64,000 bases of DNA from Prolixibacteraceae bacterium (GTDB taxonomy: Bacteria; Bacteroidota; Bacteroidia; Bacteroidales; Prolixibacteraceae): contig JAUWAB010000012.1 in assembly GCA_030602265.1 (NCBI GenBank), forward strand, positions 5,923-69,922, written 5' to 3'. Positions 53,037-61,871 of this stretch are shown in pieces. Both the position numbers and the translations under genes were made by a program. The notes under the pieces are model-generated. The model was given only the letters and a program-made list of their open reading frames with translations, made no database searches and was not told the origin of the DNA. Positions within the stretch are counted from its first letter, which is position 1; the number at the start of each line of letters is the position of its first letter.

Positions 53037-53412
53037 TAATGGTAAAAGGTAAACGGTAAACAGTAAACAGTAAACGGTAAAACGCTGATCAAAGCTCGTC
53101 CCCCTTAGAAAAAGGGGGTGGCACGCGCAGCGTGACGGGGGATTAAAAATGGTAAACGGTAAACAGTATACGGTAACCGGTGTTGGAAAACGGAGACCGG
53201 AGACCGGAGACCGGAGACCGGACATGGTTGAGAGAAACGTCGTAGGGGCAAGCCTCGCGCTTGCCCTGGCCGGTGTAAAAGGTCAACAATAAACGGCAAA
53301 CAGAAATCGGTGATTGCAATCAATAATAATAGCAGTATTTTTGCATTACAGATCAAAACACTACATCATACCACAAATAATAAATAATCAATAATAAATC
53401 ATAAATAATCAA
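53037..53412 (+). repeat. Mosaic heptamer-repeat element, copy 1.
   Basis: The modules in order are: (G/A)GTAAAC x6 (53041-53082); hairpin CCCCCTT/AAGGGGG (53100-53118); GGTAAAC-type units (53151-53180); CGGAGAC x4 (53191-53222); hairpin GGGCAAGC-ctcgc-GCTTGCCC (53246-53266); degenerate heptamers; box ATCAAAACACTACATC (53352-53367); and AAATAAT-type x5 (53375-53409). Confidence 0.85.
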
Positions 53413-53519
53413 CATGCCGCCTATCCCTTAGCGCCCCACCTAATCAAGGCAACCTATCGGTTTTTTCATCCTGAATATTGCGTTTGGCAGAAAAAATGAT
53501 ATCCTTTGCGTATTGAATA

Positions 53520-59883: not shown

Positions 59884-61629
59884 ATGAACTACAACCGAAA
59901 AGGTAAACTCAGGTACGTCGGGCCTGTTTTCATCCTGCTCCTGAACCTGGCCTGCCATTCGTGCATAAACCAGGGTACCGACAAGGGAATTGCCAGGTTT
60001 CACTGGTTCAATTATGAAGGGCACGATCCATTCTATCAGCAAAACCTACTGACTGTCAACGAATTTTACAATCCTATCCTGTCGGGTTTCTACCCCGATC
60101 CGAGCATTTGCCGCAAAGGAGATGACTTTTATATGGTCACCTCCACATTTTCATGGTATCCCGGAGTCCCGGTTTTTCACAGCAGGAACCTGGTCGACTG
60201 GGTGCAAACCGGACATGTGTTGAACCGGCCATCACAGTTGAACCTCGACGGACTTCAGGTCTCCGAGGGCATATTTGCCCCGGCGATTGAATATAATCCA
60301 TACAATGATACCTTCTATATGATCACCACACTGGTCGGGAAAGGTGGCAATTTTGTGGTAACGACCAAAGATCCGTCCGGCCCGTGGAGTGACCCGTTTC
60401 CTCTTCCTGAGGTACCGGGCATAGATCCCTCCCTGTTTTTCGATGACGACGGAAAGGCCTATATCGTGCATAACGCCGAACCGGAAGGCCCGGCCCTGTA
60501 CGACGGCCATCGGGCATTGTGGATCAGGGAGTTCGATGTAACTTCAAACAAAGTTACCGATTCCTGTAAAATGGTCGTCGACGGCGGTGTCGACTTCACC
60601 ACAAAACCCATCTGGATTGAAGCGCCTCATCTCTACAAGATCAACGGCACCTATTACCTGATGGCCGCTGAGGGCGGTACCGGCGATCAGCACTCCGAAG
60701 TGATCTTCACGAGCCCGGACGTGTGGGGACATTACACCCCGATGAATATCAATCCTATACTGACCCAGCGGGATCTGCCCGAAGGAAGGCCTTTTCCCGT
60801 AAGCTCCACGGGGCATGCCGATATCATTGAAGCACCCAACGGAGAATGGTATGCCGTCTTCTTAGGTTGCCGGCCTTATGAGGCGGGCTACTACAATACA
60901 GGCCGGGAGACCTTCCTGCTGCCGGTTAGCTGGCACGACAGCGTCCCGGTGATCCTGCCGCAGGGCATGCCGGTTCCGCTGAAACTGAAACGACCACAAG
61001 ACCTGAAAGACCTGGACAACCGCAACTATTTTCCATCGGGCAATTTTGTGCAGTACGATGATTTTACCCTTAATTATCTGGCGCCATGCTGGAACTTTCT
61101 CCGTACACCCCGCGAAGTATGGTACTGGATCACACGGTCGGAACTCAGGTTAAAATGCAGGACAGCCAACATCCGCTCACGGGAAAATCCTTCGATGGTT
61201 GCCCGCCGGCAGCAGCACCAGAATTTCAGTGCCTCGCTGGGCATGACCTTTGAACCCGAAAACGACGGACAAAAAGCCGGACTGGTCTGTTTCCAGAACG
61301 AAAACCATAACTACTTTCTGGGCGTTAAGAACCGAAATAACCGGATGGAGGTATTCCTGGAAAAGAGTGTCCTGAAAGATGGCAAGCCCATGGCGGAAGT
61401 AATCGCTTCACAGATAACCGGATTGAAACCCGGTAAAAAGATTTACCTGAAAGTGACAGGGGAAATGCCACATCTCCACTTCTGCTATTCAACCAATGGA
61501 AGAAGCTGGAAAAGCCTCATCGAAAACCAGGATGCCCGGTACCTGAGTACCGCCGCAGCCGGTGGCTTTGTGGGAACATACCTCGGGATGTATGCCGTGG
61601 AGGAAACGGTGGAGAATGGTAAACGGTAA
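59884..61629 (+). CDS. GH43 beta-xylosidase/alpha-L-arabinofuranosidase with a C-terminal beta-sandwich domain.
   Basis: The N-terminal propeller motifs are NPILSGFYPDPSICRKGDDFYMVTSTF, APHLYKINGTYYLMAAEGGT and GHADIIEAPNGEWYAVFLG. The last four codons and the stop lie inside repeat copy 3. Confidence 0.9.
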   Translation: MNYNRKGKLRYVGPVFILLLNLACHSCINQGTDKGIARFHWFNYEGHDPFYQQNLLTVNEFYNPILSGFYPDPSICRKGDDFYMVTSTFSWYPGVPVFHSRNLVDWVQTGHVLNRPSQLNLDGLQVSEGIFAPAIEYNPYNDTFYMITTLVGKGGNFVVTTKDPSGPWSDPFPLPEVPGIDPSLFFDDDGKAYIVHNAEPEGPALYDGHRALWIREFDVTSNKVTDSCKMVVDGGVDFTTKPIWIEAPHLYKINGTYYLMAAEGGTGDQHSEVIFTSPDVWGHYTPMNINPILTQRDLPEGRPFPVSSTGHADIIEAPNGEWYAVFLGCRPYEAGYYNTGRETFLLPVSWHDSVPVILPQGMPVPLKLKRPQDLKDLDNRNYFPSGNFVQYDDFTLNYLAPCWNFLRTPREVWYWITRSELRLKCRTANIRSRENPSMVARRQQHQNFSASLGMTFEPENDGQKAGLVCFQNENHNYFLGVKNRNNRMEVFLEKSVLKDGKPMAEVIASQITGLKPGKKIYLKVTGEMPHLHFCYSTNGRSWKSLIENQDARYLSTAAAGGFVGTYLGMYAVEETVENGKR

Positions 61630-61871
61630 ACGGTAAACGGTAAACGGAAACCGGAAACCGGAGACCGGAGACCGGAGACCGGAGACCGGACCTGGCAATG
61701 AAAAACGGTGTAGGGGCGACCCTTGCGGTTGCCCTGCCTCCTGGAAACGGTAAACAGTGAACAGTAAACAGTGAACAGTGAACAGTGGCAAATGCAGTTC
61801 TTCTACATTATATATCAAAACGTTACATCTTAGCACAAATAATAAATAATCAATAATAAATAATAAATCAT
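61618..61871 (+). repeat. Mosaic heptamer-repeat element, copy 3.
   Basis: The modules in order are: GGTAAAC x4 (61618-61645); GGA(A/G)ACC x6 (61646-61690); hairpin GGGCGACC-cttgc-GGTTGCCC (61714-61734); (G/A)GT(A/G)AAC x5 (61749-61788); box ATCAAAACGTTACATC (61814-61829); and AAATAAT-type x5 (61837-61871). Confidence 0.85.

Follow-up and report, generated by a model that had tools for sequence, protein, structure and literature searches.

Heptanucleotide tandem repeats are known in cyanobacteria as short tandemly repeated repetitive (STRR) sequences, reportedly described by Mazel in 1990, and the bacterial interspersed mosaic elements (BIMEs) of Escherichia coli are co-transcribed with genes. 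In many bacteria, heptamers constitute the commonest class of long simple-sequence repeats (LSSRs), for which a polymerase-slippage preference has been proposed (Mrazek 2007, cited in PMC4679880), and mixed intergenic heptamer arrays have been reported in some Bacteroidetes, namely Gramella, Aequorivita and Elizabethkingia (MacGregor 2015, PMC4679880). Repetitive extragenic palindromic (REP) sequences tagged by GTAG, the rule of their location and their association with Y1 transposases are likewise established (PMC3733652, PMC2817692, PMC6006769); the 2013 survey of GTAG REPs did not list Bacteroidetes (PMC3733652), and the insertion of a REP inside tnpA-REP genes of subclass 2.4 has already been published (PMC6006769). 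Here we describe three intergenic mosaic tracts, each joining a hairpin of the GTAG REP type to several heptamer arrays, in a 64,000-nucleotide (nt) stretch of DNA from a Prolixibacteraceae bacterium (assembly GCA_030602265.1, contig JAUWAB010000012.1, positions 5,923 to 69,922 of the forward strand; hereafter the window). We put at roughly 60% the probability that these tracts belong to a lineage-specific, genome-wide non-coding family in which REP/BIME-like repeats are fused to heptamer microsatellites.

The tracts lie at 53037-53412 (+), 56745-57335 (inverted) and 61618-61871 (+) and, read in one orientation, share a common module order: an RGTRAWC array, a CCGGRRA array, a short leader, the hairpin GTAGGGGC-N-GCCC, a second RGTRAWC array, the module GCAGT...ATCAAAACGTTACATC (M5) and an AAATAAT tail. 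The conserved hairpin was found in 40 genome copies within 5 mismatches, all built from an unpaired GTAG followed by a GGGCAASC/GSTTGCCC stem. In these copies 95.6% of the stem cells were paired, compared with 22-52% when the partners were slid, and two stem pairs varied in a compensatory manner, pair 9-21 (AU 10, GC 4 and GU 2, the latter representing G.U intermediates) and pair 11-19 (CG 11, GC 4). We classed the hairpin as a GTAG REP because of the 5' GTAG abutting a GC palindrome, the compensatory sub-families, the G.T pairs and the location after open reading frames (ORFs); by these features it is assigned to the GTAG-tagged REP superfamily. Alignment of the 40 copies revealed that the dispersed unit exceeds the hairpin and can be written as (CCGGAGA)n-CCGGACCTGGCAATGAAAAACGGY-hairpin-TG. 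In RNA structure prediction the hairpin folds (z-scores -2.3 and -3.0), and the copies are mostly singletons, with a few tandem pairs and one inverted pair only (C62:6354 and 6411; contig numbers with the prefix C refer to this assembly). As a separate observation, the loop and 3' arm of the REP are tandemly duplicated after many hairpins, here and in other phyla (CCCTTGCGGTTGCCC, for example, 2-4 times); sites of partial duplication are the regions at C79:51354 and C16:269 and the loci L058, L014, L028 and L047, which suggests a recurrent process of partial duplication at the hairpin.

The genome comprises 4.41 Mb in 168 contigs with 47.5% G+C and is a short-read metagenome-assembled genome (MAG), in which the window corresponds to C110:5923-69922. 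Genome-wide analysis with Tandem Repeats Finder (TRF) revealed that a period of 7 dominates the tandem repeats, with 134 arrays at a score of at least 50 against 1, 11 and 22 arrays for the periods 6, 8 and 9, respectively, and with further excesses at the periods 14, 21 and 28. A custom array caller located 275 heptamer arrays totalling 12.4 kb; they fall into 176 loci, of which 63 contain several arrays, and the period-7 arrays of the genome comprise 44 canonical unit types. Merely 12.5% of the array bases fall inside called genes, compared with 88% coding sequence overall, and these genic bases represent antisense arrays taken in by over-long ORF starts. Among the non-array modules, blastn returned about 7-10 genome copies of M1, about 22 of M2 and about 14 of M3, together with 57-77 matches of the AAATAAT tail module. 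All modules except M5 occur genome-wide on many contigs; M5 was found in the genome only as the three window copies (70-75% identity) and, because of this restriction, is a sub-variant that spread locally. The preliminary description of the window had proposed a dispersed mosaic intergenic family of fixed order and 7-nt period, and both the genome-wide TRF analysis and the module counts agree with this proposal.

REPs and arrays are tightly coupled. An array lies within 100 nt of 36 of the 40 REPs, compared with 7.2% of random intergenic sites, and wherever an RGTRAWC or CGGRRAC array comes within 150 nt of a REP, the two share a strand (40:0). The REP is co-oriented with the gene on its 5' side in 28 of 35 cases; twelve REPs occupy convergent and two divergent gaps, and in tandem gaps 12 co-oriented copies face 3 anti-oriented ones. 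RGTRAWC arrays likewise point the same way as the upstream gene (47:10, p=7.5e-7), including those with no REP within 400 nt (22:7). Array loci are enriched in convergent gaps (34/148, background 519/3107) and depleted in divergent gaps (14/148, background 463/3107), and their median distance is 18 nt to an adjacent gene 3' end and 152 nt to a 5' end. A replication-strand cause of this polarity was considered and rejected, as the skew-inferred leading strand carries 57% of genes and likewise 57% of RGTRAWC arrays (20/35). Thus, the polarity of the arrays follows transcription and not replication.

Every RGTRAWC variant contains T-R-A, i.e. a sense-strand TAA or TGA, and since 7 is coprime to 3, three units put a stop in each frame. 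Sixteen of 62 sense RGTRAWC arrays contain or abut the stop codon of the co-oriented upstream ORF, and a further 10 have it no more than 20 nt away. For arrays antisense to a converging gene end (n=22), no stop was located inside the array and one within 20 nt, at a median distance of 167 nt. In the simplest reading, arrays expand until selection halts them, and the 3' limit is set by the functional C-terminus if an array terminates translation at any length. The complementary strand of RGTRAWC, by contrast, is largely open, which accounts for the spurious ORFs that cover tracts 1 and 3 on the minus strand (52632-53225, 53105-53356 and 61489-61965); that the elements create such long ORFs had been noticed before and was reproduced on this strand.

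The arrays of the tracts were located by TRF, and the units were then parsed in one orientation, which recovered the three tracts and their modules as first described. The following features were assigned (window coordinates).

Tract 1
53041-53081, + strand: first RGTRAWC array (GGTAAAC/AGTAAAC; TRF period 7, 5.9 copies)
53094-53144, + strand: module M1, a GC-rich double hairpin, GCTCGTCCCCCTTAGAAAAAGGGGGTGGCACGCGCAGCGTGACGGGGGATT (blastn)
53147-53181, + strand: second RGTRAWC array (TRF)
53191-53222, + strand: CGGAGAC array continuing into the REP leader (TRF, 4.6 copies, 100% match; 40-copy alignment)
53242-53266, + strand: GTAG-tagged REP hairpin GTAGGGGCAAGCCTCGCGCTTGCCC, 8-bp stem, 5-nt loop
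53332-53367, + strand: module M5, GCAGT-N-ATCAAAACACTACATC
53375-53409, + strand: AAATAAT tail (TRF; blastn)
Tract 2
56755-56786, - strand: AAATAAT tail (TRF)
56794-56829, - strand: module M5
56840-56937, - strand: RGTRAWC array (AGTAATC/GGTAATC/GGTGATC), 14 units (TRF)
56960-56984, - strand: GTAG REP hairpin GTAGGGGCAACCCTCGCGGTTGCCC, with a stem variant compensatory to that of tract 1
57012-57030, - strand: CCGGRRA array (CCGGGGA/CCGGAAA; TRF, parsed units)
57033-57075, - strand: module M3 with hairpin CCGGGGTAACACCCCGG (blastn)
57056-57071: perfect 16-nt palindrome GTAAGGGCGCCCTTAC inside M3
57103-57156, - strand: module M2, AACGTAACTGGCTGGAAATGATCCGTAGGATCAATATATCGGTAGCCAGGCAGG (blastn)
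57160-57326, - strand: long RGTRAWC array, 23 units (TRF period 7, and period 28 with 6.0 copies)
Tract 3
61618-61651, + strand: GGTAAAC array (TRF, parsed units)
61645-61690, + strand: GGAAACC to GGAGACC array that keeps the register of the GGTAAAC array before it (TRF, parsed units)
61688-61709, + strand: conserved REP leader CCGGACCTGGCAATGAAAAACGGT (40-copy consensus)
61710-61734, + strand: GTAG REP hairpin GTAGGGGCGACCCTTGCGGTTGCCC, with a G.T pair on the + strand
61745-61787, + strand: AGTGAAC/AGTAAAC array (TRF)
61794-61829, + strand: module M5
61837-61868, + strand: AAATAAT tail (TRF)

Tract 2 carries two additional hairpin modules, one of them with the perfect palindrome, and the long RGTRAWC runs previously ascribed to this copy were recovered at 56840-56937 and 57160-57326 along with the palindrome at 57056-57071. 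Tract 3 represents the minimal version of the mosaic, and the non-array anchors share 70-81% identity between the tract copies, not counting one comparison for copy 2 whose slice was misplaced.

The first array of tract 1 begins 20 nt past the stop of a serA-like gene (51699-53021), and its tail sits 110 nt upstream of a gene for a TonB-dependent receptor with a CarboxypepD_reg domain (53520-55886). The tail of tract 2 is located 13 nt from the stop of a converging DUF4249 gene (55891-56742), so that it points at the 3' end of a gene, and at the other side the long array stops 13 nt from the stop of a co-oriented minus-strand 2-oxoacid acyltransferase gene (57340-58146). The TAA stop of the GH43 ORF (59854-61629) is supplied from within the GGTAAAC array of tract 3, and a queG-like gene (61883-62824) begins just downstream of the tail of that tract. 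Among the flanking families, the TonB-dependent receptor with its CarboxypepD_reg domain, DUF4249 and GH43 point to Bacteroidales. In copies 2 and 3 the tail module (M5 plus AAATAAT), considered as a possible promoter, contains only a weak sigma-70-like match, GTTACA-17-AATAAT, at 56801-56773 (-) and 61822-61857 (+), respectively. This match does not fit TTTG/TAnnTTTG, the promoter consensus of Bacteroidetes, and no such pair was seen by eye in the tail module. Intrinsic terminators were not predicted in tracts 1 and 3, where terminator-like U-tracts are absent, and the mosaic had no match in Rfam at gathering or E<=1 thresholds.

Comparison with described repeats revealed both likenesses and differences for each ingredient. 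With STRRs and other heptamer LSSRs, the arrays share 7-nt tandem units of several types and an intergenic, genome-wide and phylogenetically patchy occurrence. The units CCCCAGT, TTGGTCA and CAACAGT, which we take to be those of cyanobacterial STRRs, are not among the 44 unit types; the nearest approach is AGTGAAC/AGTAAAC, one mismatch from AGTCAAC. The TAACTGA repeats of Beggiatoaceae come similarly close, AGTAATC being one base off the complement register AGTTATC, but they lie just upstream of start codons, whereas the arrays described here are anchored at stop codons (PMC4679880). Apart from the differing unit sequences, the present arrays are also distinguished from STRR and TAACTGA repeats by their physical and directional coupling to REPs. 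As in E. coli BIMEs, intergenic REP palindromes are combined with a few conserved motifs in fixed order after genes; however, the REPs of BIMEs alternate in orientation and are free of heptamer arrays, whereas here they keep to one strand, usually with one REP per mosaic. There is no sequence relationship and the host belongs to another phylum; the likeness is architectural only. Miniature inverted-repeat transposable elements (MITEs), an example being that of Porphyromonas gingivalis with its internal minisatellite (PMC4596501), are also small, non-autonomous and dispersed in intergenic DNA, and may hold tandem repeats. In contrast to these, the ends of the mosaics, (GGTAAAC)n and (AAATAAT)n, are non-complementary and lack terminal inverted repeats, and the length is not fixed; target-site duplications were not visible in the flanks of the three tracts.

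With the GTAG REPs (PMC3733652), the hairpin shares GTAG directly before an 8-bp GC-rich stem, a short loop, compensatory sub-families with G.T pairs, and tens of extragenic copies located downstream of ORFs in unidirectional or convergent gaps. As regards TnpA-REP systems (PMC2817692, PMC6006769), the genome has a Y1 gene that resembles tnpA-REP, encodes the YIxNNP motif and includes a palindrome. Differences are the lack of a REP-flanked gene for a REP-associated tyrosine transposase (RAYT), the predominance of singletons over inverted dimers, the conserved leader by which each copy joins same-strand heptamer arrays, and a 25-nt sequence that is identical in several phyla. Thus, the earlier statement that the mosaic belongs to no named family holds for the composite, for which we found neither an Rfam match nor a paper, but not for the hairpin, which is a catalogued GTAG REP (PMC3733652). 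Components of the element were therefore on record before, and further copies proved so abundant that a mere local duplication can be set aside. Each ingredient is known, and we found no published description of REPs joined to heptamer arrays or of an after-stop polarity rule.

The preliminary description had further held that the arrays differ completely in sequence, which does not apply: in tract 3, GGTAAAC passes into GGAAACC and then GGAGACC by one substitution each and in register, and the units, written in one register, read AACGGTA, AACGGAA, ACCGGAA and ACCGGAG, again with a single substitution per step. Genome-wide, 81% of 1655 units fall into one network of in-register single-substitution neighbours, in which the path GGTAAAC-GGTAACC-GGAAACC-GGAGACC is well supported. 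RGTRAWC is linked only weakly, via rare units, with the families AGACA and AAATAAT, and AGAGCRA is unconnected; the network therefore does not trace all unit types to one origin. Unit gradients of this kind are typical of satellite and microsatellite evolution by slippage and unequal exchange, and the 28-nt higher-order period of tract 2 indicates multi-unit duplication.

Further array types were observed in the genome. At C103:16151-16522, C30:41020-41452 and C36:22426-22918, a second type of mosaic consists of AGACAWY and GTATCAR arrays inverted around CTTTGTGG...CCACAGAG modules; these inverted arrays yield long potential hairpins, and their orientation statistics are unlike those of the RGTRAWC type. 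The largest satellite-like block seen in the genome, a 778-nt non-coding stretch of AGAGCRA-type heptamers with 28-35-nt higher-order repeats, is located at C11:79588-80365. In addition, tandem repeats with a 10-nt unit (CACAGATTA-type, 'gattacacagattacacag') stand beside heptamer mosaics, as do AATCTGTGTAATCCGTGTAATC modules, at C36:20730-20760, C47:3100-3250 and C79:9880-9930.

The two ingredients differ in their distribution among relatives. The REP was absent from the 40 relatives examined, including 18 congeners. Of 41 close relatives, 10 had RGTRAWC x4 arrays, and a sample of 301 genomes from 209 genera of the order contained 34 genomes with such arrays, belonging to 29 genera. With 193 RGTRAWC window matches, the present genome ranks highest, followed by genomes with 58 and 48; the relative G001 contains neither REP nor arrays. 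In other genera, RGTRAWC arrays are also mosaic with other heptamers and often start at a stop codon. The exact 25-nt REP pattern was found on at least 120 contigs from, e.g., Chloroflexota, Clostridia, Bacteroidota, Gammaproteobacteria, Planctomycetota and Patescibacteria, often beside sibling hairpins sharing the GTAGGGGC head and as inverted pairs, and heptamer arrays were found near it in 8 of 146 contexts in other phyla. Separately, at locus L055:3440-3650 of a Candidatus Symbiothrix MAG, four GTAGGGGCAACCCTTGCGGTTGCCC hairpins apparently lie within an RND/AcrB-like transporter gene that looks continuous on both sides.

No transposase gene is present in the window, as had been reported, but REP-associated tyrosine-transposase-like genes do occur elsewhere in the genome. 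A TnpA-REP (RAYT)-like ORF of 325 aa at C2:46149-46982 (minus strand), outside the window, encodes a protein with the motifs DHIH (D replacing N of NH[IFV]H), AWQ and YILNNP and without a Pfam match. TnpA-REP proteins of subclass 2.4 are characterized by NH[IFV]H, WQ, YIxNNP and a REP inside the gene (Quentin 2018, PMC6006769). In the C2 gene, the region separating the HUH motif from the Tyr motif contains a 39-nt unit (DRGVVGGDTVDWN) repeated six times in tandem and in frame, as well as an in-frame palindrome, GTAGAGACGTTGCATGCAACGTCTCTAC, also GTAGAGACG...CGTCTCTAC; two GCCGTAGCATGCTACGGC hairpins follow the gene, and a decayed second copy is located at C140:10023-10520. Two Pfam Y1_Tnp genes on C94 and C96 were considered as a REPtron and rejected, being flanked by unrelated hairpins or terminal inverted repeats. 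A tie between array presence and RAYT-like genes was rejected as well, since these genes are common to both groups of the 41 relatives (9/10 array-positive and 23/31 array-negative genomes). In other phyla, divergent Y1 genes at the loci L155, L156, L157 and L161 (Patescibacteria, Clostridia, Caldimicrobium and one further MAG) contain GTAGGGGC-type REPs that are near-identical across phyla; these form part of the reading frame, after the HUH motif and ahead of the C-terminal domain, with GCCCCTAC encoding Ala-Pro-Thr, and REPs also flank the genes. The arrangement agrees with the feature published for subclass 2.4.

On this basis, we think it most likely that the mosaics are selfish or neutral DNA on which selection has acted at the ends of genes. 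REP units may have been dispersed in the form of single-stranded hairpins by a REP-associated transposase of the Y1 (HUH) type that works in trans, for which the C2 gene, resembling subclass 2.4, is a candidate; no RAYT-like gene flanked by a GTAGGGGC REP was found. The arrays may then lengthen, shorten and diversify at their sites, driven by replication slippage and by unequal exchange, a process that would account for the one-substitution gradients, the 14-, 21- and 28-nt periods and the contigs breaking in arrays. Selection would set position and polarity by allowing growth up to or over a stop codon only where translation stops in all frames within 21 nt, a property that requires a period not divisible by 3, and by keeping promoter-side DNA free of arrays. 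The mosaics would thus be co-transcribed as 3' untranslated or intercistronic RNA, and their hairpins could incidentally protect mRNA 3' ends, as in E. coli REPs.

Several findings weigh against a family of REP-like repeats and slipping microsatellites of this kind. Regarding the mobile component, the C2 protein matches NF047646 with E=6.5e-14 and 52 bits, below the 80-bit cut-off, and its internal palindrome differs from the GTAGGGGC REP; no RAYT gene flanked by this REP is present in the assembly, although a copy may be missing from it at 96.8% completeness, and inverted REPIN pairing is not the rule, the REPs being mostly singletons. Regarding the arrays, pure random slippage does not predict that the RGTRAWC unit family recurs in 29 of the 209 genera. 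Selection for stop codons fails to explain the polarity of arrays starting after a native stop and, the CGGAGAC, AGACAAC and AGAGCAA families being stop-free, it cannot account for these either. Array instability is deduced from sequence patterns rather than observed: the congeners, with about 58% protein identity at best, are too distant for a comparison of orthologous sites, and no related strains were found in metagenomes by a protein-guided scan or a scan for the leader+REP pattern. Finally, the gene calls are our own crude ORF calls.

As an alternative, the mosaics could be functional RNA modules, with the hairpins serving as 3'-exonuclease barriers or terminators and the unstructured, A-rich arrays binding a single-stranded-RNA protein once per 7 nt; candidate binders are S1, cold-shock or RRM-type proteins, following the proposal made for the TAACTGA repeats in Beggiatoaceae. 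We regard this as unlikely, though more probable than the other alternatives. It agrees with the strong polarity relative to the upstream gene, which is independent of replication, with the G.U intermediates on the GTAG strand, with the predicted RNA fold of the hairpin (z-scores of -2.3 and -3.0) and with the occurrence of the RGTRAWC family in 29 genera, and such a role has been proposed for related heptamers, CspB binding as one protein per heptamer (MacGregor 2015, PMC4679880). However, at least 17 of the 18 congeners sampled lack the REP and most of them lack the arrays, so that no conserved function is needed in the genus; tracts 1 and 3 are devoid of terminator-like U-tracts, unit sequences drift freely, and the flanking genes are functionally unrelated.

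We consider it improbable, more so than a role as RNA modules, that the hairpin-plus-heptamer mosaic constitutes a distinct cross-phylum composite class with its own mechanism, in which the REP/Y1 machinery makes the arrays or lands on them and the products are kept as after-stop cassettes. If this were true, the combination of all-frame stops, an unstructured spacer and a hairpin would shield neighbouring genes from one another, both in translation and at the 3' end of the mRNA, and the present genome would represent an extreme case. Such a class would differ from REPs and microsatellites that only by coincidence occupy the same permissive DNA.

Slightly less probable still is an enzymatic origin of the arrays themselves, made by the REP machinery through Y1/HUH cleavage and rejoining, or by cassettes landing at heptamer boundaries, instead of by slippage. 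The tight and strictly co-oriented coupling of REPs and arrays (36/40; 40:0) would be expected here, as would the tandem duplications of the REP 3' arm beside hairpins in this genome and in other phyla. Moreover, TYAC is present in the complement of every RGTRAWC variant and is similar to TTAC, the target of IS608. Nevertheless, the REP in other phyla is usually array-free (arrays in 8/146 contexts), arrays of normal polarity exist far from any REP, and relatives with and without arrays cannot be told apart by the presence of RAYT-like genes; we also know of no biochemical precedent for the enzymatic formation of heptamer arrays. That the tracts are a mere local duplication or a short-read assembly artefact is very improbable: the restriction of M5 to three window copies (70-75% identity) and the frequent contig ends in arrays would fit, but the other modules occur genome-wide on many contigs, which refutes local duplication as the sole origin of the whole family, similar arrays exist in 33 other genomes of the order, and the independent Logan assembly is identical up to the arrays.

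This Logan contig, the only other public assembly of the tract region, breaks inside arrays at both ends, and many contigs of the present assembly likewise end within arrays; unit counts in long arrays are therefore uncertain in this short-read MAG.

REPs and heptamer repeats have so far been described separately, neither with a settled function or origin. In the present genome the two are joined, strictly co-oriented and placed from the upstream stop codon onward, with stops in every frame of the sense strand, which offers a testable selective explanation for both the direction of the arrays and their period, which is not a multiple of three. The findings extend GTAG REPs to Bacteroidales. 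For genomics, the mosaics disrupt short-read assembly, produce spurious antisense ORFs and shift annotated stops, with 16 genes apparently ending in an array, and the arrays could be used as strain-typing markers if their length varies between strains.

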